A stretch of DNA of 64,000 nt from Thermoanaerobaculia bacterium (lineage in GTDB: Bacteria; Acidobacteriota; Thermoanaerobaculia; Gp7-AA8). Position numbers and translations under genes: made by a program. The number at the start of each line of letters is the position of its first letter. Within the stretch, counting starts at the first letter, position 1. The notes under the pieces are model-generated. The model had not been told where the DNA came from and did no database searches. It saw only the letters and a program-made list of their open reading frames with translations. The DNA lies in assembly GCA_036261885.1 (NCBI GenBank), contig DATAJY010000009.1:52814-116813 (forward strand). The letters run 5' to 3'. Positions 42-12,111 of this stretch are shown one piece after another.

Positions 42-953
42 ATGATCTCGTCGGCCGAGGAACTTCCGAACGATTCCATCAAACCGGTGCTCACGAAGGC
101 ATTCTCCGTGACGACGCTGCGCAATCCGGTGGCCGTCGTCTATGACGACGCTCAGGACGTCTATTTCGTCTCCAACGTCAACGGCTCGCCCGCCACAAGA
201 GACGGCAACGGCTTCATCTCCCGCATTACACCCGACGGCAAGGTCGACCAGCTGAAATTCATCGATGGCCTCGATGCACCGAAAGGTCTGGCCATCCGCG
301 GCGCGGAATTGTGGATCGCCGACATCGATCACGTGCTGGTCTATGACCGCGTCACCGGCGCGCGCAAGAGCTCGTTCGATCTCACGCCGTTCGGCGCGGT
401 GTTCCTCGAAGACATTGCCGTCGGGCCGAATGATCTCGTGTACGTCACCGATACCGACGTGACCATCAAAGGGCAACGCGAACGGGTGCGGACCGGCGAT
501 GGCCGCATTTTCCGCGTCGACGAAGATGGGGACATCGAAGTGGCCGCGCGCGGCGAAGAACTGCGCTCGCCGAGCGGCATCGCCTGGGACGGTACACGCT
601 TTCTCGTCGCCCAGGCGTACGGCAATGAAGTGCTGGCGTGGAATCCCGGCATGCGCCCCACGGCCGTCTTACGCGGCCCCGGCGCCTACGACGGCATCGT
701 GATTCTTCCCAGCGGCGCGGTGATCGTCTCCAGCCATTATGACGACGCGCTGCACGTGGCGAAGAACGGCGTGCTCGAGCCTCTGTTTGCGCGACGCCCC
801 TCGCCCGGAGACCTCGGGTTCGACACGAAGAGAAATCGCCTGCTCATTCCGTCGAGCGATGGCGACTGGCTCGAAGCCTGGACCCTTCCTCCCATGACGC
901 CCACCCAAACGACCTCGGCGCGCGATGGAGCGCTCGAACTGGCGAAATACTAG
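42..953 (+). CDS. beta-propeller protein with SMP-30/gluconolactonase/LRE-like (NHL-like) repeats; reading frame is open to the window edge, so the true start may lie upstream
   Basis: 303-aa ORF with repeated beta-strand blades (DAPKGLAIRG..LWIAD, LVYVTDTD, IAWDGTRFLVA); no stop between position 3 and the ATG at 42. Confidence 0.5.
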   Translation: MISSAEELPNDSIKPVLTKAFSVTTLRNPVAVVYDDAQDVYFVSNVNGSPATRDGNGFISRITPDGKVDQLKFIDGLDAPKGLAIRGAELWIADIDHVLVYDRVTGARKSSFDLTPFGAVFLEDIAVGPNDLVYVTDTDVTIKGQRERVRTGDGRIFRVDEDGDIEVAARGEELRSPSGIAWDGTRFLVAQAYGNEVLAWNPGMRPTAVLRGPGAYDGIVILPSGAVIVSSHYDDALHVAKNGVLEPLFARRPSPGDLGFDTKRNRLLIPSSDGDWLEAWTLPPMTPTQTTSARDGALELAKY

Positions 954-1726
954 AACCTCCCGAGGGCCCGCTCCTTGACCGGCAGGATCTCGAGACACGT
1001 CGTCCACCAGCCGGTCAGGATCGTTTCGACGAACTGTTCCGGCAGTTGTTCGCTCCGCATTTCCGCGGCCAGTGCGTGATGGTCGTAATGCACCGGCACG
1101 AATTCGACCGACAGTGCGTCCGCGACGTCGACGATCGTGTACCAGACGTTCGTTCGCCCGTCATTGGCGGGCCGCCCGATCACCCCGGCATTGATGACGT
1201 GCTTTCCGTCGCGTAAGGCCTTGTGCCAGTGCAGGCCGGTATGCGTACAGACGAGCACGTCGGCCTCGGAATCGCGGCAGAGTTTTTCGAGAAACGGCTC
1301 GGGCGAAGTCGAGCGCCAGAGAAATTCATTGATGGTGCGCGGGGAACCGTGTACGAGCAGGAAGCGCAGGCCGCCCGCCGTAAAGCGGATTTCGCGTGGC
1401 AGCGTGCCCATCCATTCCTTGTAGGCCTCGCTGGTATTCGCGAACGTGTAGTCGTAAGAGATCTGTGCGTAATGATTGTCGCGCGGATCGGTATAGCCGC
1501 AATGGCAGTCGTCGGCGTGCGTCGAGAGCGACTCCTCGTAATTCCCCTGAATTCCCGGAATGCCCCGCTCGAGGAGCAGTTGCGGGATGCGATCCGGGTA
1601 TGGGCCGAAGGCACCGAGGTCGCCGAGAAAATAGACGCGCTCGATGTGGCGCGACGCGATGTCGTCCAGCGTCGCCGTGAGCGCGTGGTAATTCGAGTAA
1701 ATGCCGCCGATGAACGCGATCTTCAC
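950..1726 (-). CDS. calcineurin-like metallophosphoesterase (YfcE/MPP family); likely GTG start at VKIAFIGG
   Basis: MPP motifs: GDLGAFG, GNYEE, VLVHGSP and VLVCTHTGLH; the upstream part of the 335-aa ORF is Arg-rich junk. Confidence 0.7.
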   Translation of the reverse strand: MKIAFIGGIYSNYHALTATLDDIASRHIERVYFLGDLGAFGPYPDRIPQLLLERGIPGIQGNYEESLSTHADDCHCGYTDPRDNHYAQISYDYTFANTSEAYKEWMGTLPREIRFTAGGLRFLLVHGSPRTINEFLWRSTSPEPFLEKLCRDSEADVLVCTHTGLHWHKALRDGKHVINAGVIGRPANDGRTNVWYTIVDVADALSVEFVPVHYDHHALAAEMRSEQLPEQFVETILTGWWTTCLEILPVKERALGRF

Positions 1727-1776: not shown

Positions 1777-2259
1777 ATGTTCCGGTGGATACTCCCCCTG
1801 CTCCTGATCCTCTCGCCCGCGCTCTCCGCGCAAACCCACATCGCCGCCGGAGTCTCCGGCGGATTGCAGTCTTATGCGAACGAGGAAGACGATCCGCGCG
1901 TGCTCGCCGGTGGCGAGGCTCTCGTGCAGCGCGGGCGGTTCGCCATTCACGCCGCATTCGAATACGCCGATCTGTCGAGCGGCGGCGCGCTCATCGCCGT
2001 GCATCCGGACCTCGCCTTCGTCTCGAATTTCGCCGATCGCTGGACGTTTCTCGCCGGCGCCGGTCCGACGATCATCAACATCGAGAGCCTCTCGGACGAC
2101 CGGACCTGGAACGTCGAGCTCGAGCTCGCCCGCCGTTTCACGCACGCCGATGTTTTCGCGCGCGTCCGTCATTACGACTATGAGGCGGAAGGGTTCCGCG
2201 CGTTTGCCAGCCCGAGCGGACCGGTGGTCTCGATCGGCGCGCGCTTCCAGATTCATTGA
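1777..2259 (+). CDS. small outer-membrane beta-barrel protein (OmpW/OmpA-like porin family) with signal peptide
   Basis: N-terminal signal MFRWILPLLLILSPALSAQ, alternating hydrophobic beta-strands, C-terminal aromatic residue (..GARFQIH). Confidence 0.55.
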   Translation: MFRWILPLLLILSPALSAQTHIAAGVSGGLQSYANEEDDPRVLAGGEALVQRGRFAIHAAFEYADLSSGGALIAVHPDLAFVSNFADRWTFLAGAGPTIINIESLSDDRTWNVELELARRFTHADVFARVRHYDYEAEGFRAFASPSGPVVSIGARFQIH

Positions 2260-2687
2260 AAGCGTTTCGTCATCAGCTGTCGTGAATGTTCGGCGAATCC
2301 GCGGCGTATGTAGAGACGCTTCGCCGCTTCGTTCGTGAATTCGACCTCGAGGTGGAGCGCGCGAATGCCATGCTCGCGGCAGACGCGCTCCGCCTCATCG
2401 ATCGCCGCGGTGCCCAGACCGTTGCCCCGCGCCTCCGGGACGACGTAGAGCTCGTCGAGAAAGGCATCGCGCCCGCCGAATTCGACGCTGAAGCCGAACG
2501 CCACAATGAAATACCCCGCCGATTCGTTCATCAGCAGGACCCGCCCCAGCGCGGCATTCGTCAGAACCTCGCGCAACGCCGCTTCGAACACCTCCGGGCG
2601 ATAGGAATACCCTTCTTCTTCGTAAAACGCGCGATGCATGCGCAGCAGTTGTGAGAGATCGTCGGGTGTGGCCGTACGGAAGGTCAT
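2253..2687 (-). CDS. GNAT family N-acetyltransferase
   Basis: acetyl-CoA-binding motif RGNGLGTAAIDEAE and C-terminal YIRRGF; start taken at MTFRTATPDD. Confidence 0.75.
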   Translation of the reverse strand: MTFRTATPDDLSQLLRMHRAFYEEEGYSYRPEVFEAALREVLTNAALGRVLLMNESAGYFIVAFGFSVEFGGRDAFLDELYVVPEARGNGLGTAAIDEAERVCREHGIRALHLEVEFTNEAAKRLYIRRGFAEHSRQLMTKRFQ

Positions 2688-2749
2688 CGTGAGCGCTGCA
2701 TTGTAGCGGCCGTGCGGCCCCGGCCTCATGCCCGCCGAGGACGCGCGCC

Positions 2750-3184
2750 TCACAGACTCTTATCGAACGTCTTCTGCGTTTTCGTCACCGCATAGCCGAG
2801 GCGCTCGTAAAACGTGTGTGTCCGCTCGCGGACCACGTTGCTGCGGACGCGCATGCGTGCGAGGCCGCGTGCACGTGCCCACTCTTCCGCGGCAGCAACG
2901 AGACGCGCGCCGATGCCGTGCGAGCGCAGCGGCGCATGGACCACGAGTCCACGGATCTCGACATACGAGCCGGTCTCGATCGAGAGCACTTCCGCGAGGT
3001 GCATCCAGCCGGCGGTCTCGCTTTCGACTGTTGCGACGAGCACGGCATCGCCCGCGCTCGCGGAGACACGCGCGAGACGTGCACGCATCTCCGTTTCCGT
3101 CGATGGATAGCCGAGCTCGCCCGCGAGCATCGCCAGGGCCGCGGCATCGTCCAATGTCGCGTTGCGAACCATCACGTCCGGCAT
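2750..3184 (-). CDS. GNAT family N-acetyltransferase
   Basis: motif RSHGIGARLVAAAEEWA and YERLGY; start at MPDVMVRNATLDD, which overlaps the stop of the upstream radical SAM gene. Confidence 0.75.
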   Translation of the reverse strand: MPDVMVRNATLDDAAALAMLAGELGYPSTETEMRARLARVSASAGDAVLVATVESETAGWMHLAEVLSIETGSYVEIRGLVVHAPLRSHGIGARLVAAAEEWARARGLARMRVRSNVVRERTHTFYERLGYAVTKTQKTFDKSL

Positions 3185-4032
3185 GTCACTCCATCCACCC
3201 AGCATGTGTGGCAGGCGCCGTATTTCAAGGGAAATTCTCGCAGTGTTCCGGCGAGCGTCTCCCCCATCCGCGCTTCCGGCTCTTCGATGAGAATCGGGCA
3301 GACATAGACGCCTTTGCTCGTGATCATGCGGCACGAGGAGCATTGCAGCGTCGCCGCTTCCGCACCGGTCAACGACTCATTCGTCAGCCGTTCCCAATCC
3401 TCGTACGCGCGTGTGCGCGTTTCCTCCGCGCCGATCCGGAAGAGCGACAGCACTTTCAGACGCGGACGTTCGAATCCGAATCCGCGAATGAGCTCCAGGA
3501 ATCGCGCGCGTCCCGCTTCACTGCCGACACCCTCCGCGGCGGTGGTCACGGTAATGACCGGATTGAGTCCCGCCTCCGCCAGATTGCGCAGCCCGAGCAT
3601 CACCCGATCCCAAACGCCCGCGCCGCGAATGGCATCGTGCGATTCGGCGTCGAAGCCGTCGAGACTGACGCGCAGGTCGAGCGAATACTCACTCGCATCG
3701 AACAGAGCGCGCAATGCGCGGCACGTTTCGGGACGCAACAGCATTCCGTTCGTCAGCACCGTGGCCGGTCCCTGTTTCAGCGTCGCTTCGAGAATGGCCA
3801 GCATGTCGCGATTCATGAACGGCTCGCCGCCGGTGAAGTAGTACTCGCGTACGCCGAGCGCACGCGCTTCGCCGAGCCACCGCTGCACCTCCGCGAGCGA
3901 GAGCATTTCGTGGGAGCGATTGCGCGGCGACGACGAGATGAAGCAATGCGTGCACTCGATGTTGCAGAGCGTTCCGGCCACCTGGAACCAGAGCGTATCG
4001 AGGGCGAGCAGCGGAACGGAGGGATGGGTCAT
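3172..4032 (-). CDS. radical SAM protein with C-terminal Cys-rich domain (rSAM/Cys-rich, selenodomain-type family)
   Basis: CNIECTHC = CxxxCxxC radical SAM cluster motif; GGEPF SAM-binding motif; C-terminal cysteines QCSSC...VCP...ACHTCW...TC; 4-nt overlap with the upstream FAD oxidoreductase gene. Confidence 0.8.
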   Translation of the reverse strand: MTHPSVPLLALDTLWFQVAGTLCNIECTHCFISSSPRNRSHEMLSLAEVQRWLGEARALGVREYYFTGGEPFMNRDMLAILEATLKQGPATVLTNGMLLRPETCRALRALFDASEYSLDLRVSLDGFDAESHDAIRGAGVWDRVMLGLRNLAEAGLNPVITVTTAAEGVGSEAGRARFLELIRGFGFERPRLKVLSLFRIGAEETRTRAYEDWERLTNESLTGAEAATLQCSSCRMITSKGVYVCPILIEEPEARMGETLAGTLREFPLKYGACHTCWVDGVTCRT

Positions 4033-5171
4033 AAGGAATCGAGAATCGTTTCGAGCTGCGATAAGCCGGTCTGCAATAAGAACCCATTCGACCGGCCATA
4101 AGAACGGGAACCGACGAAAAAGAAGCCCGGCTCGCCCGATTGCAGGTCAGCCGGTTTCACGGGAGGGACGGAAAGACAATCGGTGATGTTCGAAATGGCC
4201 TTGTAGAGACGGCCGCCGCCTTCGGTGATCGGCGAGACTTCGACAGCCAGCTCGGATAGAAATCGATGATCGGGTTTGTAGCCGGTGAAGGCGGCCACCG
4301 CATCCGCCTCGATCACGCGGCCGCCGGTCAGCGCGACGACGACAGGACCGTTGTTCTGCGCGACGCTTTCGATCTGCGCTTTTCGTTCGACACGCAGAAA
4401 CCGCGGCGGCGCCTCGGCCAGTGCGTTCGCCTTCGCGACGACGCTCTGGCGCTCCGGCAGCGGATCGTTCATCACCTCTTCGCATGGTCTGCGATTCGCG
4501 GACCGCACGGCCCAGACGACGCGCGTCGCCGGCGCTTCCGTGGCCAGTTCCTCGAGCATCCCGATGGCATTCGCGGCGGAATGACCGTCGCCCAACAGAA
4601 GGATGGTTTTGTCGCGCAGCGATTCTCTGGCGGCGTTCAATTCGCCGAGAAAACGAATGGCCGGGCGGGACAAGCGCGACTCACCGCGCGCCGGCAGGCC
4701 GCCGACGCCCATCGGCCGCGGCACGACGAGACCGCCGCTCGCGTCGAGAATGATTTCGGCCTCGAACGATTCGTCGTTGTCGCACAGCACGCGGAACGGG
4801 CGCTCTGCGCGCAACGGATGATGGGCGTAATCGCTGCGCGTGAGACCGCGCCGTCCGATGGCGATGACGTTCATCCCGGTGCGCACGCGGCCGCCCAGCG
4901 GCGCACGCCGCGTCAACGGCAACAGCACGCGTTCGACGTATTCGGGACCGGTGAGCAGCGCATCATCGGCCGGCAGGGCATCGCCGAGGATTTCGCGCAT
5001 CGGCGCAGAAACATTCATCTGCAACGGCGAGAAAAATCGCGTGGGGCCCCAGGTGCGCAGGGACGCACCGACCTCTCCCCGCTCGAGCACGATGACGTCG
5101 TGCCCGCGCGCGGCCGCGCCGAGGGCGGCGGCGATTCCCATCGGCCCGGCGCCGATGACGAGCACGCGCAT
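4029..5171 (-). CDS. FAD/NAD(P)-binding oxidoreductase (flavin monooxygenase-like)
   Basis: N-terminal Rossmann fingerprint MRVLVIGAGPMGIAAALGAAARGHDVIVLER; second dinucleotide motif LLLGDGHSAANA. Confidence 0.7.
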   Translation of the reverse strand: MRVLVIGAGPMGIAAALGAAARGHDVIVLERGEVGASLRTWGPTRFFSPLQMNVSAPMREILGDALPADDALLTGPEYVERVLLPLTRRAPLGGRVRTGMNVIAIGRRGLTRSDYAHHPLRAERPFRVLCDNDESFEAEIILDASGGLVVPRPMGVGGLPARGESRLSRPAIRFLGELNAARESLRDKTILLLGDGHSAANAIGMLEELATEAPATRVVWAVRSANRRPCEEVMNDPLPERQSVVAKANALAEAPPRFLRVERKAQIESVAQNNGPVVVALTGGRVIEADAVAAFTGYKPDHRFLSELAVEVSPITEGGGRLYKAISNITDCLSVPPVKPADLQSGEPGFFFVGSRSYGRSNGFLLQTGLSQLETILDSL

Positions 5172-5503
5172 TACGACTCCTTGCGCGCGAGCGCGTTACA
5201 CGACTGCGCCCAGTGTGCGATCGTGCCGCCGCCGCGGATCACCGCCGCGACTCCGATGGCTTCGGCCATCTCTTCCGGACTGAAGCCGGCATCGCTGCAG
5301 GCCGACGAATACGAGTCGATGCAATACGGCTCCTGAATCGCGTACGCGACCGCCAGCGCAATGAGCTTCTTCGTTTTCTCATCGAGCGCGCCCGGCGCCA
5401 TGGTGGCGGTGTACCAGTTCAGAAACGCGTCCCAACCCTTCGGATTGGCCTTCGAGATTTCACCGAAGCGAGCGAGATCCTCGGAGAGGTAATAGCTGGG
5501 CAT
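5171..5503 (-). CDS. carboxymuconolactone decarboxylase (CMD/AhpD-like) family protein
   Basis: 110-aa protein with CMD-type helices (KKLIALAVAYAIQEPYCIDSY); shares 1 nt with the downstream gene start. Confidence 0.65.
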   Translation of the reverse strand: MPSYYLSEDLARFGEISKANPKGWDAFLNWYTATMAPGALDEKTKKLIALAVAYAIQEPYCIDSYSSACSDAGFSPEEMAEAIGVAAVIRGGGTIAHWAQSCNALARKES

Positions 5504-5621
5504 GGTCGGGTTCTCCTTTTCGAAATACGAACCGCCGGCGGCCTGGCCGCCGAGCGTGCGTGCGTGAATGGAGTGGTGGCGATGGTGCTGCCGCGCTCGG
5601 CCGCCGTCGCGGCGGCGTCAC

Positions 5622-6269
5622 TCACGCCGGTGGGGCGCGTGGGGCGAGTTGCAGCAGTGCGGGTGCGAACGGAATCGCGCGAATGAGCGGCACGTCGATG
5701 CGCACCGCAATCCAACCGCGCCACGCGCGCTCGTGTCGCGCGGCGTCGAGCGCCACACGGGAATCGACGTCGGTGATCGCATCGAGCACGACCAGCGATC
5801 CGATTCGTTCGCGGCAACGCGCGAGCGTCAGTTCCGAAAGCAACTCGCGATCGCACGTGGAGAACGCAATGAAGTTGATGCCGCCATCCCGCGCCGGGGC
5901 AACGACCGTGGCACCCGCCGCGACCGACTGCAGGACGGAAGCGAGACACGCCGGCGGTGGTGCATCGATCGCCGCAAGTACGATCGCATCGAAACGCGAA
6001 AGCGCATCGGACGACGCATTGGCCACTCGCTCTCCGAACGACGCGCCGCGCTGCGGCAGCCATTCGCGCGAGACCGACGGTGCGATGGCCGCGAGTGCGG
6101 CGAGGTCCGCTTCTTCGCAGGCGATGAGCGGCGTGGCCCCGGCCCTTGAAGCGGACTCGAGCCAGGCGGCGATTACACGACGAAACAGCGGCGCAGCGAA
6201 GCGCATCCCTTTCGCGGCTGCTTCCCGTTCCGGGCTGCGCGCGAACAGAACCACCGCCGTTCGTTTCAT
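5622..6269 (-). CDS. DUF2064-type transferase (rSAM/selenodomain-associated transferase 1 family)
   Basis: start at MKRTAVVLFARSPEREAAAKG..., the characteristic DUF2064 N-terminus; the ORF-track extension upstream of this Met is probably not coding. Confidence 0.65.
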   Translation of the reverse strand: MKRTAVVLFARSPEREAAAKGMRFAAPLFRRVIAAWLESASRAGATPLIACEEADLAALAAIAPSVSREWLPQRGASFGERVANASSDALSRFDAIVLAAIDAPPPACLASVLQSVAAGATVVAPARDGGINFIAFSTCDRELLSELTLARCRERIGSLVVLDAITDVDSRVALDAARHERAWRGWIAVRIDVPLIRAIPFAPALLQLAPRAPPA

Positions 6270-6293
6270 CAACGGCGCGAAGTGTACCTGCTT

Positions 6294-6365: not shown

Positions 6366-8627
6366 ATGCAATACCGCAAGCTCTGGATCACACTCGGCAT
6401 CGTCGTTCTGGTGTCCTTCACGATTCTCGGCATCGCCGGCTACAAAGGCATCCAGTCGGCGCCGCCCATCCCGTCGAAAGTCGTGACCACCGACGGTGCC
6501 GTGCTCTTCACCGGGGAAGAAATCCGCAACGGACAGAACGTCTGGCAGTCTCTCGGCGGCCAGGAAATCGGCTCGATCTGGGGGCACGGCGCCTACGTCG
6601 CTCCCGACTGGACCGCGGATTACCTCCATCGCGAGCTCACGCTCATCCTCGATCGCTGGGGCTACGCCACGGCCGGCAGCGAGCAGCAGGCCGCGTTGCG
6701 CCAGCGTCTGCAGACGATGATGCGCACCAACACCTACAACCCGGCCACCGGCGTCGTCACGATCACGAAAGAACGGCAGCAGGCCTTCGAAACACTAGCC
6801 GCGCATTACGCGAGCGTCTTCGGCGCCGGCCGTCCCGAATACGCGATCGCGCGCGGCACGCTCACCGACGCGACGAAATCGCGCGAGATGGTGGCGTTCT
6901 TTTTCTGGACCGCCTGGTCGAGCGCCACGAACCGCCCCGGCAAGAGCATCACCTACACGCAGAACTGGCCGCACGAACCGCTCATCGATCTGAAGCCGAC
7001 CACGGCCGCGGTGATGTGGTCGATGATCAGCGTCATTCTTCTGATCGGCGGCATCGGCGCGCTGGTCTGGTTCTACGTCGCACACCGCGAGCCGCATAAG
7101 AACGACGACGAAGACGAGCTGCCGATCACCGATCCGCTCCTCGGCGCGAATCCGACGCCGTCCCAGAAGGCGACCATCAAATTCTTCCTCACTGCCGCGG
7201 CATTGTGGGTGTTGCAGATCGCGCTCGGCGCGCTCGTCGCGCATTACGGTGTCGAAGGGGCGTCGTTCTTCGGCATCCGCATCGATCACATCCTTCCGTA
7301 CAACATCGTCCGGACATGGCATCTGCAGCTCGGCATCTTCTGGATCGCCACGACGTGGCTCGCCACCGGTCTCTACATCGTTCCGGCGCTGGCCGGCAAA
7401 GAGCCGAAAGGGCAGCGCTTCGCGATCAACATGCTCTACGGCGCGGTCGTCTTCGTCGTGCTCGGCTCGATGACCGGCGAATGGCTCGGCATCAAACAGA
7501 AACTCGGCAACCTCTGGTTCTGGTTCGGCTCGCAGGGGTACGAGTACGTCGACCTCGGACGCGTGTGGCAGATCCTGCTCTTCACGGGACTCTGCTTCTG
7601 GCTCTGGCTGATGTGGCGCGGCGTCAAACCGGCGCTCGATCGCAAAGACTCCTCCCGCTCGCTGCTGATGCTCTTCACCGTCTCCGCGATCGCCATTCCG
7701 ATGTTTTATGGCGCCGGCCTGATGTACGGACAGCGCTCGCATGTCGCCGTCGCTGAATACTGGCGCTGGTGGGTCGTCCATCTCTGGGTCGAAGGGTTCT
7801 TCGAAGTCTTCGCCACGGTGGTGATCGCGTTCCTCTTCACGCGTCTGCGGCTGCTGCGAATCGAAGCGGCCACGAAGGCCGTGCTCTTCTCGACGATCAT
7901 CTTCCTCGGCGGCGGCATCATCGGCACGTTCCATCACCTCTACTTCACCGGCATGCCCGCCTCGATCCTGGCCCTCGGCTCGGTGTTCAGTGCACTGGAA
8001 ATCGTGCCGCTCTGTCTGGTCGGCTTCGAAGCATGGGAAAACCTCAAGCTCTCGAAGGGAACGCAGCGAGCGACGTGGGTTCCGGCCTATCGCTGGCCGA
8101 TCTACTTCTTCGTCGCGGTCGCGTTCTGGAACCTCGTCGGCGCCGGCGTGTTCGGCTTCCTCATCAATCCGCCGATCGCGCTTTATTACATGCAGGGTCT
8201 CAATCTCACGCCGGTGCACGGACACACCGCCCTGTTCGGCGTGTACGGCATGCTCGGGCTCGGTCTCACGCTCTTCTGCCTGCGCGCGCTTCGTCCGGGG
8301 TTGCAGTGGAAAGAGAAAACCGTCGGTGTCGCCTTCTGGCTGATCAACGGCGGTCTGGTGCTGATGGTCGCGCTGTCGATGTTGCCGGTCGGCATCCTGC
8401 AGGCGAATGCCGCGATCAGCGAGGGAGTCTGGTTCGCGCGCTCTGCCGAGTTTCTGCAGACGCCGCTGATGCAGAACCTCCGCTGGCTGCGCGCGATCGG
8501 CGATACCTGCTTCGCCATCGGCGCGCTGATGCTGGCGTGGTTCATGGTCGGCTTGCTCACCGGCCACTCCTACGACGTCACCACGGAAACGGAACCGGCA
8601 CCGAAAGGCGGCGTGCCGCAATACTGA
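6366..8627 (+). CDS. norB: quinol-dependent nitric oxide reductase, single-subunit qNOR (NorB/NorZ family)
   Basis: 753 aa; N-terminal TM plus periplasmic extension, then a 12-TM haem-copper-oxidase-like core with conserved His ligands (HLWVEGFFEVF, TFHHLYF, HGHTALFGVYGM); RBS ggaagggag before the ATG. Confidence 0.9.
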   Translation: MQYRKLWITLGIVVLVSFTILGIAGYKGIQSAPPIPSKVVTTDGAVLFTGEEIRNGQNVWQSLGGQEIGSIWGHGAYVAPDWTADYLHRELTLILDRWGYATAGSEQQAALRQRLQTMMRTNTYNPATGVVTITKERQQAFETLAAHYASVFGAGRPEYAIARGTLTDATKSREMVAFFFWTAWSSATNRPGKSITYTQNWPHEPLIDLKPTTAAVMWSMISVILLIGGIGALVWFYVAHREPHKNDDEDELPITDPLLGANPTPSQKATIKFFLTAAALWVLQIALGALVAHYGVEGASFFGIRIDHILPYNIVRTWHLQLGIFWIATTWLATGLYIVPALAGKEPKGQRFAINMLYGAVVFVVLGSMTGEWLGIKQKLGNLWFWFGSQGYEYVDLGRVWQILLFTGLCFWLWLMWRGVKPALDRKDSSRSLLMLFTVSAIAIPMFYGAGLMYGQRSHVAVAEYWRWWVVHLWVEGFFEVFATVVIAFLFTRLRLLRIEAATKAVLFSTIIFLGGGIIGTFHHLYFTGMPASILALGSVFSALEIVPLCLVGFEAWENLKLSKGTQRATWVPAYRWPIYFFVAVAFWNLVGAGVFGFLINPPIALYYMQGLNLTPVHGHTALFGVYGMLGLGLTLFCLRALRPGLQWKEKTVGVAFWLINGGLVLMVALSMLPVGILQANAAISEGVWFARSAEFLQTPLMQNLRWLRAIGDTCFAIGALMLAWFMVGLLTGHSYDVTTETEPAPKGGVPQY

Positions 8628-8706: not shown

Positions 8707-9825
8707 ATGAAGAAGTTTCTGAAGATCGCCGTCCTCGTCGCCGTCGTACTGGCGGTCGCGACCTGGTGCGTCTTTCAGCTCCCGCAATTCGGCGGGACAT
8801 TCGAAGGCGAGCGGCTGGCGCGCATGCAGCGCTCGCCGGAATTCATCAACGGACGATTTCAGAACGTGCCGCCGCAGCAGACCGACAACTCGCTGCGCAA
8901 GATGTACCGGCTCTACACGCAGGGACAGATACGCGAGCCGCAATTCGCCGTACCGGTGCTCGACGTTTCGCTCGAGCGTCCGCCCTCGCGCGAGCTGCAG
9001 GCCGTCTGGCTCGGCCATGCGAGCGTGCTCGTGGAGCTCGACGGCGTGCGCATCCTCACCGATCCGGTGCTCTCCGACTACGCGTCCCCCGTTCCGCCGC
9101 TCGGACCGAAACGTCTGCACCGCCCGCCGATCGCCATTCCGGATCTCAAAAGCGTCGACGCGGTGGTGATCTCGCACGATCACTACGACCACCTCGACCT
9201 GGAGACCACGCGGCAGCTGGCGCGGAACGGCACGCACTTCTTCGTGCCGCTCGGCGTCGGCGCGCATCTCGAACGGTGGCACGTTCCATCCGCGCAGATC
9301 CACGAAATGGATTGGTGGGAATCGACGCCCTTCCAGGGCATCACCATTCATTGCACGCCGACGCGGCATTACAGCGGACGCAAACGGATGGACAACTCGA
9401 CGCTCTGGTCGTCGTGGTTCATCAAGGGCACGCGCTCGGTCTATTTCAGCGGCGACACCGGCTATGCACCGCACTTTCGGGAGATCCGCCGCCGGCTGGG
9501 GGCGGTCGATCTGACGCTTCTGAAAGTCGGCGCATACGGCGAGACATGGCTCGACATTCACATGGATCCGGAATCGGCCGTGCGTGCTCACCGCGATCTC
9601 GGCGGCCACACGATGCTGCCGGTGCATTGGGCGACGTTCAATCTTTCGTACCACGCGTGGGAAGAGCCGATCGTCCGCACGCTCGCCGCCGCGCAGCGCG
9701 AGCACATCGACGTCATCACTCCCCGTCCCGGTGAGCCGTACGCATTCGGACGACCATTCCGAAATACCGATTGGTTTCGGCGCCTCCCCTCCCGTGCATC
9801 CGGGCGGGATCGCCTGCCTCATTGA
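8707..9825 (+). CDS. MBL-fold metal-dependent hydrolase (NAPE-PLD/Zn-dependent hydrolase-like), secreted or membrane-anchored
   Basis: N-terminal signal/TM MKKFLKIAVLVAVVLAVA; metallo-beta-lactamase motif ISHDHYDHLD. Confidence 0.75.
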   Translation: MKKFLKIAVLVAVVLAVATWCVFQLPQFGGTFEGERLARMQRSPEFINGRFQNVPPQQTDNSLRKMYRLYTQGQIREPQFAVPVLDVSLERPPSRELQAVWLGHASVLVELDGVRILTDPVLSDYASPVPPLGPKRLHRPPIAIPDLKSVDAVVISHDHYDHLDLETTRQLARNGTHFFVPLGVGAHLERWHVPSAQIHEMDWWESTPFQGITIHCTPTRHYSGRKRMDNSTLWSSWFIKGTRSVYFSGDTGYAPHFREIRRRLGAVDLTLLKVGAYGETWLDIHMDPESAVRAHRDLGGHTMLPVHWATFNLSYHAWEEPIVRTLAAAQREHIDVITPRPGEPYAFGRPFRNTDWFRRLPSRASGRDRLPH

Positions 9826-9957: not shown

Positions 9958-12111
9958 ATGACGGCGTTTCTCAGAGCACTTCTCGTACTGGCCACGGCCG
10001 GGACGATTGCATTTCCCACGCAGCCGCCGCCGAAGCTCACCGCTCCGGAGACGGCCACCAACGGCGGACGCAAACGCGCCGTCGGCACTCCTTCGACTCC
10101 GGTTCCCTCGCGCCCTGAATTCGTCGCGACGGATCTCGAGTACTACCTGACCGACGACGGCATTGCCTACATCCGTCCGGGACTGAAGGTCACGATCAAA
10201 TCGGTGACCGTCCCGACCGATCGCAAGCCGGTCGTCGAATTCACGCTGACCGACAACTTCGATCAGCCGCTCGATCGCCTCGGCAAAACGACGCCGGGCG
10301 TGGTTTCGACGTCGTGGCTGCTGGCCTGGTACAACCCGGAGACGCGCCTCTACACGTCGTACATCACGCGCACCGTGAACGCCGCCGCCGGCAGCCCGAA
10401 GGCCGGCACGTCCGCCGTGCAGGCCACCGGTGAGAACGTCGCCGCGAACTACACCGACAAAGGCAACGGCCTCTACTCGTACAAGTTCAACGCGGCGCTT
10501 CCGGCGAACTTCGACGTGACGAAAACGCACACGCTCGGCGTTTACTCCAGCCGCAATCTCACCGAGCAGATCGGCAAGAACTACTACGCCGACGAAGAGT
10601 TCGACTTCCGTCCCGACGGCCAGACCGTCGTCGAAAAGTGGGACAAGATCCGCGACGTCGGCTCCTGCCAGAACTGCCACGACGCGCAGACGTTCGGTCT
10701 GCACGGCGGCTCGCGCCGCGACGTGAAGCTCTGCGTGATGTGCCACACGCCGCAGACCACCGACCCCGACACCGGCAACAGCGTCGACATGGCGTTGATG
10801 ATCCACAAGATCCACGGCGCCGCGCTGCTCAGCACCCCGTACGTGATCTGGGGCAACGGCAACAGCATTCACGACTACTCCGAAGTCACCTATCCGCAGG
10901 ACACGCGCAACTGCAAGAACTGCCACGAAGGCACGGTGGCCACGGCCATTCCGACGCAGAAGGAAGTCTGGTACACGCAGCCGAGCCGCCGCGCGTGCGG
11001 CGCCTGCCACGACAGCATCAACTGGGTCACAGGCGAAGGCCACCCGGCCGGACCGCAGACCAGCGACGCCACCTGCGCCACCTGCCACGTGCCCGACAGC
11101 GGCAGCGAGTTCGACGCCTCGGTCAAGGGCGGCCACATGATCCCGACGAAGTCTTCGCAGCTTCAGGGCATCAAGGCCACGATCGTCAGCGTGTCGAACG
11201 TGAAGGCCGGTGAGAAGCCGACCATCGTCTACAAGTTCACCAACAACAAGGGCGAGGTGCTCGACGGCACGAAGTTCTCGACCTTCGCACCGATCCACGC
11301 CGGCCCGACGTCGAGCTACACGACGTACTTCCGCGAGTCCGTCACCGCGACGAGCACGAACAAAGCGGCGTTCGACGCCGCCACCGGCAACACCACCTAC
11401 ACGTTCACCAATCCGATCCCGGCCGGATCCACCGGCACCTGGTCGTTCAGCGGTGACTTCTACATCACCTCGACGCTCAAGCGCGGCGACGGCAAGGCCG
11501 ACATTACCGGCGTGCGCGATGCCGCCATCAACCCGCAGAAGTACGTCGGCCTCAACGGAGCCACGACGGTTCCGCGCCGCACGTCGGTCTCGATCGCGTT
11601 GTGCAACGAGTGCCATGACAGCCTCGGCCTGCACGGCGGACAGCGCCGCACGATCGAAGAGTGCGTGATGTGCCACAACCCGGTGAAGGGCGACAAAGCC
11701 GTTCGTCCCGCCACCGAGGGTGAAGAGGAATCGGTCTCCTTCCAGCGTCTCATCCATCGCATTCACAGCGGTCACGAGCTGACGCAGGACTTCACGGTCT
11801 TCGGCAACGGCAGCAGCCGCCACAACTACAACGAGGTCACCTATCCGGGCGATCGCCGCAACTGCGCCTCCTGCCACGTCAGCGATGGACAGCAGCTTCC
11901 GGCCGCCGGTGATCCGGTGATCGCGAAACGCGACTTCTTCTCGCCGCAGGGCTCGGGCACGGCCGCGTGCCTCGGCTGCCATGACAATCGCGATGCGGCA
12001 GCGCACGCGTTCCTGAACACCACCACGTTCGGCGGACAGCCGGCCGAGGCGTGTGCGACGTGCCATGGCAAAACCAAAGAGTGGTCCGTCGACAAATCGC
12101 ATGCCCGGTAA
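9958..12111 (+). CDS. mtrC: MtrC/OmcA-like decahaem c-type cytochrome (beta-domain / pentahaem / beta-domain / pentahaem architecture)
   Basis: 717 aa; signal peptide; exactly 10 CxxCH motifs in two groups of five (aa ~235-385 and ~540-717) separated by a haem-free beta-rich segment, with ~230 aa haem-free beta-rich N-terminus; RBS aaggagg. Confidence 0.8.
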   Translation: MTAFLRALLVLATAGTIAFPTQPPPKLTAPETATNGGRKRAVGTPSTPVPSRPEFVATDLEYYLTDDGIAYIRPGLKVTIKSVTVPTDRKPVVEFTLTDNFDQPLDRLGKTTPGVVSTSWLLAWYNPETRLYTSYITRTVNAAAGSPKAGTSAVQATGENVAANYTDKGNGLYSYKFNAALPANFDVTKTHTLGVYSSRNLTEQIGKNYYADEEFDFRPDGQTVVEKWDKIRDVGSCQNCHDAQTFGLHGGSRRDVKLCVMCHTPQTTDPDTGNSVDMALMIHKIHGAALLSTPYVIWGNGNSIHDYSEVTYPQDTRNCKNCHEGTVATAIPTQKEVWYTQPSRRACGACHDSINWVTGEGHPAGPQTSDATCATCHVPDSGSEFDASVKGGHMIPTKSSQLQGIKATIVSVSNVKAGEKPTIVYKFTNNKGEVLDGTKFSTFAPIHAGPTSSYTTYFRESVTATSTNKAAFDAATGNTTYTFTNPIPAGSTGTWSFSGDFYITSTLKRGDGKADITGVRDAAINPQKYVGLNGATTVPRRTSVSIALCNECHDSLGLHGGQRRTIEECVMCHNPVKGDKAVRPATEGEEESVSFQRLIHRIHSGHELTQDFTVFGNGSSRHNYNEVTYPGDRRNCASCHVSDGQQLPAAGDPVIAKRDFFSPQGSGTAACLGCHDNRDAAAHAFLNTTTFGGQPAEACATCHGKTKEWSVDKSHAR

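Follow-up and report, generated by a model that had tools for sequence, protein, structure and literature searches.

A radical SAM enzyme and the genes packed around it were analyzed in a 64,000-nucleotide stretch of DNA (the window) from a Thermoanaerobaculia (Acidobacteriota) metagenome-assembled genome. The enzyme shares 100% identity with an NCBI protein of this class. The list of open reading frames (ORFs) and Pfam searches indicated that six minus-strand genes fill positions 2253–6269, as the original prediction had stated, and independent gene calls on the same contig (L077) gave the identical gene set. The first gene encodes a DUF2064 protein of 215 aa (5622–6269; Pfam PF09837). A spacer of 118 nt, read from the sequence (5504–5621), separates it from the gene of an AhpD/CMD-fold protein of 110 aa (CMD; 5171–5503), a near miss of the TIGR04169 family. 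The genes of a FAD/NAD(P)H flavoprotein of 380 aa (FADox; 4029–5171; Pfam Pyr_redox_3 and Pyr_redox_2) and of the radical SAM enzyme of 286 aa (rSAM; 3172–4032; Pfam Radical_SAM) follow. The last two genes encode GNAT N-acetyltransferases (both Pfam Acetyltransf_1), one of 144–151 aa (2750–3184, or to 3205) and the other of 144–166 aa (2253–2729, or to 2687 or 2753), depending on the start codons. The six genes had been described as tightly packed with overlaps of 1–13 nt. Three overlaps were confirmed, of 1 nt (CMD/FADox), 4 nt (FADox/rSAM) and 13 nt (rSAM/GNAT), but the DUF2064/CMD junction is the 118-nt gap, and the two GNAT genes lie 20 nt apart if the called start is used but overlap by 4 nt if translation begins at the GTG at 2753.

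A gene beyond these six belongs to the system. A metallophosphoesterase-like protein of 258 aa (MPE; 950–1726, minus strand; Pfam Metallophos_2) is encoded outside the flagged interval, from which it is split here by the two GNAT genes and an opposite-strand ORF (1777–2259). The core gene set as originally predicted missed this gene, which turned out to be the most conserved partner of rSAM.

One genome per GTDB species was scanned, and 76 loci were obtained, 50 acidobacterial and 26 from other phyla. They covered at least eight phyla: Acidobacteriota, Gemmatimonadota, KSB1, Calditrichota, Cytophagia, Myxococcota, Eisenbacteria and Elusimicrobiota. Partner genes were counted where the locus was flanked by 3.5 kb or more on each side (30 acidobacterial loci and 17 from other phyla). 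The MPE gene was present in 29/30 and 16/17 of them, respectively, the CMD gene in 26/30 and 5/17, and the FADox gene in 26/30 and 7/17. The DUF2064 gene was found upstream of CMD in 18 of the 30 acidobacterial loci and was present in one of the 17 others. The MPE gene was always on the same strand as the rSAM gene, their stop and start codons often overlapped, and MPE is the most constant partner of rSAM. The conserved unit is a four-to-five-gene module of DUF2064, AhpD-like CMD, FADox, rSAM and MPE. Both rSAM and MPE were abundant in soil metagenomes; 7,871 (rSAM) and 7,525 (MPE) of the 8,000 scored candidates per search were significant. On one acidobacterial contig of 1.26 Mb (L089, 10001–14884), the MPE gene was not beside the rSAM gene, which was followed by genes for OsmC, an unknown 423-aa protein, GT2, a MobA-like NTP transferase and MoaC.

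The rSAM sequence contains a CX3CX2C motif at C23/C27/C30, a GGEP SAM-binding motif and six more cysteine residues in its last 56 residues, ending in ...GACHTCWVDGVTCRT. The reading frame is continuous and has no in-frame TGA. The CxxxCxxC motif, the Cys-rich C-terminus and the use of Cys in the tail, all read earlier from the sequence, were thus correct. Alignment of 76 orthologues, with relatives down to 30% identity, showed no variation at C23/27/30 and C231/245/274/277. G281-x-x-C284 is strictly kept in the core family, and only the most distant relatives have lost it.

rSAM was compared with known families. It matched Pfam Radical_SAM with 73.7 bits. Its best NCBIfam match was the uncharacterised Rv1681 family, with 116 bits against a cut-off of 380, and covered the radical SAM core only. 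The score on TIGR04167 (ArsS) was 56.1 bits against a cut-off of 300, with residues 11–155, the radical SAM core, aligned; relatives and fusion proteins scored 45–79 bits on this model. The C-terminal 121–130 residues of five family members matched no NCBIfam or Pfam model at E ≤ 10, and homology of this domain to DUF3641, TIGR04167 or SPASM was rejected on this basis. Membership in ArsS, ArsL or any other NCBIfam radical SAM equivalog was also rejected, as all scores were far below the cut-offs. Judged from these comparisons, rSAM is best described as a member of an undescribed, abundant family that is sister to ArsS/TIGR04167 and falls in no curated family. Literature searches on the rSAM family, on rSAM with metallophosphoesterase and arsenic, on the TIGR numbers and on Rv1681 returned nothing beyond the ArsS and ArsL papers and a selenoproteome review.

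The 3D structure of rSAM was modeled using AlphaFold 2 (pLDDT 86.4, pTM 0.88). In the model, a β-hairpin (residues 234–243) lies between C231 and C245, a helix (272–280) carries C274 and C277, and the tail holding C284 is disordered (pLDDT <50). Foldseek analysis indicated that the nearest folds were BlsE (7vob, E 5e-14), SkfB, SuiB and MoaA, with TM-scores of about 0.6. The features of twitch-subclass radical SAM enzymes, namely CX3CX2C, the GGE motif, a Cys-flanked β-hairpin and CxxC, were all present. The modeled C-terminus is compatible with an auxiliary cluster held by four cysteines and a single free thiol on the tail.

The MPE protein matched Pfam Metallophos_2 with 37.5 bits and no NCBIfam family. 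The full set of canonical metallophosphoesterase dimetal motifs (DxH, GD, GNH(D/E), H and GHxH) was not found in it. Motif I is G7-x-Y9, with both Asp and His replaced, and GNH is changed to GNY62 in all 68 orthologues, while D35, N61, H125 and H161 are kept. Three cysteine residues are invariant, C73 and C75 in DCxCGYTDP and C243 in GWWTTC. The nearest PDB entries were 1nnw, 2gju, 3rqz and 3qfm, none of which has the CxC or the invariant cysteines of MPE. These residue patterns suggested that MPE is a degenerate metallophosphoesterase in which half of the dimetal site is gone and a set of three cysteines has been acquired.

The best NCBIfam match of CMD was TIGR04169, "arsenosugar biosynthesis-associated peroxidase-like protein", with a full-length match of 107.8 bits (cut-off 120). 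An orthologue from KSB1 (L079) that keeps the CxxC scored 125.7 bits and passed. Comparison with the AhpD structure 5dik showed that the QCPGC of AhpD is QEPYC in the window protein, giving E58-x-x-C61. Residue 58 is Glu in 38 sequences and Cys in five, and changes together with C69 and C102. In the acidobacterial proteins, Glu (E58) has replaced the first CxxC cysteine, and cysteines occur at 69 and 102 instead; the proteins of five loci from KSB1, Elusimicrobiota and Cytophagia (L049, L050, L056, L059 and L062) keep the CxxC and are without C69/C102. From the alignment, this looks like a clean co-varying rewiring of the redox motif.

FADox has two dinucleotide-binding domains and no CxxC, and its C332 is invariant in 51 orthologues. 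It scored 49.8 bits on TIGR04018 (YpdA) against a cut-off of 339.9, and its nearest PDB sequences were 7a7b (Bdr) and 7a76. By sequence comparison, it is probably a distant relative of YpdA/Bdr and thioredoxin reductase. The DUF2064 protein passed Pfam PF09837 with 42.6 bits (cut-off 25.8, E 6e-11), in agreement with the prediction that the first operon gene encodes a protein of this type. Its sole NCBIfam match was TIGR04282, with 41.6 bits against a cut-off of 134; homologues scored 118.6 (L050), 125.6 (L082) and 163.6 (P0262). NCBI labels TIGR04282 as "arsenosugar biosynthesis glycosyltransferase". The window protein appears to be a divergent relative of TIGR04282, in a CofC-like family resembling nucleotidyl- and glycosyltransferases.

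The original prediction also proposed looking for in-frame UGA codons in orthologues. In tblastn analysis, no selenocysteine was found at the cluster cysteines of rSAM (76 orthologues), at its C-terminal cysteines (73–75), or at the conserved cysteines of CMD (43), FADox (51) and MPE (65–68). No stop codon occurred at any conserved Cys column of the four proteins, and selenocysteine variants were rejected.

Links to arsenic were found in other phyla. A methyltransferase of about 400 aa clusters with the rSAM and MPE genes in 8 of the 26 non-acidobacterial loci (KSB1, Calditrichota, Cytophagia and an unclassified bacterium). Its best NCBIfam match was arsinothricin-type ArsM (NF040538), with 351–383 bits in the KSB1 and Calditrichota loci, below the cut-off of 500; the arsenite methyltransferase model PRK11873 was also matched. 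Alignment to CmArsM indicated that all four As(III)-binding Cys residues are kept. Gene fusions were searched for among 1.8 billion representative proteins. rSAM–ArsM fusions were found in P0139, whose rSAM part is 43% identical over the full length, and in P0253. Relatives of FADox are fused to the N-terminus of rSAM in P0133 and P0142, and these fusions indicate that the flavoprotein works directly with rSAM. In P0262, a related rSAM is fused to a DUF2064 half that passes TIGR04282 with 163.6 bits. The original prediction was to be given up if rSAM fell into a well-characterised family and the DUF2064 gene was not co-conserved with it. It stands on this point, because the DUF2064 gene accompanies rSAM in 18/30 acidobacterial loci and P0262 unites a DUF2064 domain with a related rSAM in one protein.

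Uptake genes were also found near the rSAM–MPE pair. PiT transporters were encoded near it in L050, L059 and L062, an OprO/P-type porin at L082, and an SSS-like permease at L080 and L082. Arsenate enters cells via phosphate transporters. The DUF2064 gene is adjacent in L050, L082 and the Roseomonas clusters. Among cultured bacteria, a 38%-identical rSAM was found on plasmid p546-1 of Roseomonas haemaphysalidis (L087, NZ_CP061178.1, 52088–65146). This cluster encodes a protein named TIGR04282 by PGAP, DUF547, a second rSAM, a phosphonate-type ABC transporter, MPE, VTT/DedA, FAD oxidoreductases and GT2. Its MPE homologue is 32% identical and has the GGxYSN and DCGCG motifs in common with the window protein. 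No ars genes were found around the Roseomonas cluster. A plasmid search with the TIGR04169-like protein for a canonical ArsS cluster returned generic CMD proteins only.

Further clusters related to the module were observed. DUF2064/TIGR04282 proteins and radical SAM enzymes of this superfamily recur with a common gene set in Calditrichota (L082, 2247–7801), a metagenome lineage (L085, 914–13547) and the Roseomonas plasmid. The set includes DUF547, GT2, GT87, CDP-alcohol phosphatidyltransferase, FA_hydroxylase and a chalcone-isomerase-like protein, together with VTT/DedA that is either fused to a pyridine-nucleotide disulfide oxidoreductase or encoded next to one. This gene content suggests chemistry on membrane-lipid head groups. 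In three KSB1 loci (L056, 11309–12949; L079, 13908–18996; L083, 11612–16369), the order rSAM–MPE–CMD–FADox is followed by a GlpD-type glycerol-3-phosphate dehydrogenase gene, which hints at a link to glycerol phosphate. A FAD-linked oxidase of about 965 aa with Fe-S and CCG domains also follows in L079 and L083. On plasmid pHP-187 of Marinobacter adhaerens HP15 (L088, 8001–8826), a 31%-identical rSAM homologue is split over two frames beside a sodium:solute symporter gene. As it is frameshifted, by pseudogenization or sequencing error, it was left out.

The remaining genes at the locus were outside the module. The GNAT of 2750–3184 scored 49.6 bits on Pfam Acetyltransf_1, and its best NCBIfam match was PhnO-like, 39.5 bits against a cut-off of 142. 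The GNAT of 2253–2729 scored 57 bits on Acetyltransf_1 and reached no NCBIfam cut-off. In the well-flanked loci, the former was present in 5/30 acidobacterial and 0/17 other loci and the latter in none of either group; elsewhere, the latter was found only in the closest relative (L001). Both GNATs are lineage-specific accessory genes inserted between the rSAM and MPE genes. Together with the FAD oxidoreductase and CMD genes, the two GNATs had been taken to suggest small-molecule or peptide modification. Because the GNATs are not part of the conserved system, tailoring by them is unsupported.

The ORF of 1777–2259 (plus strand, 160 aa as called, also called in L077) begins with a signal-peptide-like N-terminus (MFRWILPLLLILSPALSAQ) and convergently overlaps the stop of the second GNAT gene. 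It matched no Pfam or NCBIfam family, and none of the 76 related loci has it, not even L001, the 90%-identical relative. In this genome alone, it has been inserted between the operon and the MPE gene.

The 118-nt spacer contains GC-rich hairpins and a Shine-Dalgarno sequence, AAGGAG, before the CMD gene. Its RNA fold was no better than that of shuffled sequence (z = −1.19), and an Rfam search gave no match. Small ORFs in it were not conserved. The spacer length varied from 38 to 153 nt in 25 orthologous loci, and the Shine-Dalgarno sequence was the sole conserved part. Promoters and terminators were not in excess in the spacer or in the divergent promoter region. As the spacer is unconserved, its fold non-significant and Rfam without a match, we rejected the idea that it or the divergent promoter region holds a precursor peptide gene or a regulatory RNA.

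On the other side, the operon is divergent from a qNOR gene, as had been noted. The qNOR gene (plus strand) starts at 6282 or 6366 and ends at 8627, and its product has an N-terminal cytochrome-c-like domain. It is followed on the same strand by a gene for a secreted MBL-fold protein (8707–9825) and, at 9958–12111 and beyond, by genes of at least two multihaem cytochromes, one of them a 717-aa MtrC/MtrF-domain protein. These genes may form a nitric-oxide or extracellular electron-transfer locus. No qNOR gene was found in the 30 acidobacterial or the 17 other well-flanked loci. The GNATs and the qNOR neighbourhood are incidental to the module.

To our knowledge, only two radical SAM routes to carbon–arsenic bonds have been described, that of ArsS to arsenosugars and that of ArsL to arsinothricin. 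ArsS transfers the 5'-deoxyadenosyl group to dimethylarsenite and thereby forms a carbon–arsenic bond. The operon had been predicted to resemble an rSAM/selenodomain system (TIGR04167/TIGR04282) of unknown function. That description is outdated, as NCBIfam now names the system arsenosugar biosynthesis (ArsS) and the chemistry of ArsS has been published. The resemblance held for CMD and the DUF2064 protein, which are below the cut-offs of TIGR04169 and TIGR04282 but have passing relatives in L079 and P0262, respectively, and it did not hold for rSAM.

ArsS and the window rSAM are both radical SAM enzymes of about 300 aa with an N-terminal CX3CX2C and a Cys/Sec tail. TIGR04167 is listed with a single GxxU selenocysteine motif (PMC13188914), and the window rSAM has GxxC. 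Both are accompanied by TIGR04169-type AhpD-like and DUF2064/TIGR04282-type proteins, and relatives of the window rSAM are clustered with or fused to ArsM-type methyltransferases. Unlike ArsS, the window rSAM has an obligatory partner, the Cys-bearing MPE, and a YpdA-like flavoprotein (26/30 in Acidobacteriota, 7/17 in other phyla). No ArsM gene lies beside the acidobacterial loci, no TIGR04283-passing glycosyltransferase was found, and no selenocysteine forms were seen.

ArsL is about 445 aa long, with cluster Cys at 209/213/216 and an RCCLKC (CCxxC) end, and cleaves SAM to a 3-amino-3-carboxypropyl (ACP) radical; arsenic is bound on its C-terminal Cys tail (bioRxiv 10.1101/2024.02.01.577332, 10.64898/2026.04.29.721666). 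The window rSAM family resembles it in its C-terminal Cys tail and in its pairing with ArsM of the arsinothricin type in KSB1/Calditrichota loci. It differs in its length of 286 aa, cluster Cys at 23/27/30, GGEP and a single tail Cys, and the methyltransferases associated with its relatives are below the ArsM cut-off (500 bits). The possibility that the window rSAM is ArsL was rejected by architecture (length, CX3CX2C position and no RCCLKC end). The parallels of the GxxC tail with ArsS and ArsL are analogies, not demonstrated homology.

With the twitch enzymes BlsE, SkfB, MoaA and the BtrN type, the window rSAM has in common a partial TIM-barrel core, a Cys-flanked β-hairpin and a CxxC helix. 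Identity is 15–20% and the TM-score about 0.6, however, and these enzymes have other substrates and partners and no GxxC tail. For MPE, PF1291 (1nnw) and PH1616 (2gju) have the Metallophos_2 fold and also lack the motif I Asp and His; canonical phosphodiesterases of the SapH/YfcE type have the fold as well. Unlike MPE, the solved relatives lack the DCxCGYTDP/GWWTTC cysteines, and none is known to be paired with a radical SAM enzyme.

We tentatively propose that the module is analogous to ArsS and modifies an organoarsenical or a related thiophilic metalloid. In the proposed mechanism, rSAM would generate a canonical 5'-deoxyadenosyl radical, with a twitch-type auxiliary Fe-S cluster and a flexible GxxC thiol, and would, like ArsS, join carbon to arsenic on an As(III) species bound to a thiol. 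FADox and the AhpD-like CMD could constitute a NAD(P)H-driven redox relay that re-reduces As(V) or protein disulfides, or that feeds electrons to the rSAM cluster. MPE might hold and deliver the metalloid, or hydrolyze an adenosylated or phospho-linked product, and the DUF2064 protein might attach or activate the resulting sugar-like moiety. The proposal builds on observed gene content, conservation, fusions, residue patterns and failed membership in known families. The substrate and every chemical step are inferred, and for this reason we hold the proposal at less than moderate confidence.

Several observations favor this proposal. The rSAM–MPE pair is conserved in eight or more phyla, often with translational coupling. 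ArsM-type clustering, rSAM–ArsM fusions and relatives passing TIGR04169 and TIGR04282 point to arsenic, and oxyanion uptake genes recur (PiT, the OprO/P-type porin and the phosphonate-type ABC transporter). The FADox–rSAM fusions and the parallel of the GxxC tail with the GxxU of ArsS and the Cys tail of ArsL are also consistent with it. Other observations weigh against it. No ArsM-like gene was found in the flanks (±8–10 kb) of the 50 acidobacterial loci or, by tblastn with ArsM-like queries, in the 64-kb window, and no other recognisable ars gene was found by Pfam within ±10 kb of the clusters in the window and on two long acidobacterial contigs. The link to arsenic is thus drawn from other phyla, because no ars gene was found near the acidobacterial loci. 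The "arsenosugar" names of TIGR04282 and TIGR04169 rest on guilt by association (model type hypoth_equivalog). rSAM scored far below the ArsS cut-off (56 versus 300 bits), and its C-terminal domain is without detectable homology to that of ArsS, so that the GxxC/GxxU parallel is at the motif level only. The three invariant MPE cysteines are known from sequence and not from spatial position. Most Gemmatimonadota loci carry the rSAM–MPE pair alone. The 75–93% identity within Thermoanaerobaculia and the housekeeping-type neighbours suit core metabolism at least equally.

The module could instead be independent of arsenic, with rSAM modifying a nucleotide, a nucleoside-sugar or a lipid head-group precursor. 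It would do so by adenosyl addition as in HpnH or MqnE, or act on a nucleoside triphosphate or nucleoside in the manner of MoaA, BlsE or viperin. MPE would remove or rearrange phosphate, the flavoprotein and CMD would carry out redox tailoring, and the DUF2064 protein and glycosyltransferases would attach the product to the membrane or envelope. We consider this possible, although rather doubtful. The nearest relatives of rSAM are twitch or nucleotide-acting enzymes (BlsE, MoaA, viperin-like), and the closest characterised MPE relatives, for example SapH (3qfm), hydrolyze nucleotides. The acidobacterial loci, with no ars genes nearby and very strongly conserved proteins, agree with this alternative. 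It leaves unexplained the recurrent ArsM-type neighbours and fusions with their four As(III)-binding Cys and the thiol-rich features, namely the GxxC tail, the three MPE cysteines and the AhpD-like protein. The GT2, GT87, CDP-alcohol phosphatidyltransferase, VTT/DedA, FA_hydroxylase, nucleoside transporter and glycerol-3-phosphate dehydrogenase genes of related clusters suit it, but such lipid and glycosyltransferase genes would fit the synthesis of arsenosugar phospholipids equally.

The thiol-rich features fit arsenic handling generally, and would therefore also suit an anoxic breakdown of organoarsenicals, in which the rSAM–MPE pair is a carbon–arsenic lyase or demethylase, comparable to PhnJ in C–P lyase, and the Cys site of MPE captures the released As(III). 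The two-gene form in Gemmatimonadota needs no methyltransferase, and the hosts are soil and sediment lineages, many of them anaerobic or microaerobic. This is improbable, as clustering and fusion with ArsM, glycosyltransferase and TIGR04282 genes point to synthesis, and our literature search found no precedent for such chemistry. A peptide-modification operon for a peptide made by the ribosome and modified after translation (RiPP), with rSAM as a SPASM/twitch maturase and the GNATs acetylating the product, is very unlikely. The Foldseek matches include SkfB and SuiB, and there is a faint GNAT match to a RiPP acetyltransferase. NCBIfam matches to StsB, ScmF and WgkB were weak (67–82 bits), but they were far below the cut-offs and limited to the rSAM core. 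rSAM has no SPASM match and no N-terminal RiPP recognition element or peptide-binding domain, its cluster motif beginning at residue 23. No small ORF was conserved, the only sizeable spacer is unconserved, and the GNATs are missing from most orthologous loci.

If the proposed link to arsenic fails, the module would still be an uncharacterised pathway conserved widely among phyla that have received little study. Whatever the substrate, it poses new structure–function problems in the strict pairing of a twitch rSAM with a half-degenerate, Cys-bearing MPE and in the rewired AhpD motif. A stronger form of the proposal, which we regard as unlikely but worth stating, is that rSAM and the Cys-bearing MPE constitute a third, independently evolved radical system for carbon–arsenic or carbon–metalloid bonds after ArsS and ArsL, in which the C-terminal substrate domain is new and a phosphoesterase fold has been repurposed as a subunit that binds the metalloid or processes the product. 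If true, a third rSAM family would extend what is known of the enzymes that form organoarsenicals and provide a candidate marker gene for the cycling of arsenic in soils and sediments. The system is encoded by many of the uncultured soil members of Thermoanaerobaculia, Gemmatimonadota, KSB1 and Calditrichota, a large share of them, and would then point to a microbial source (or sink) of organoarsenicals that is abundant in soils and sediments but has gone unrecognised.

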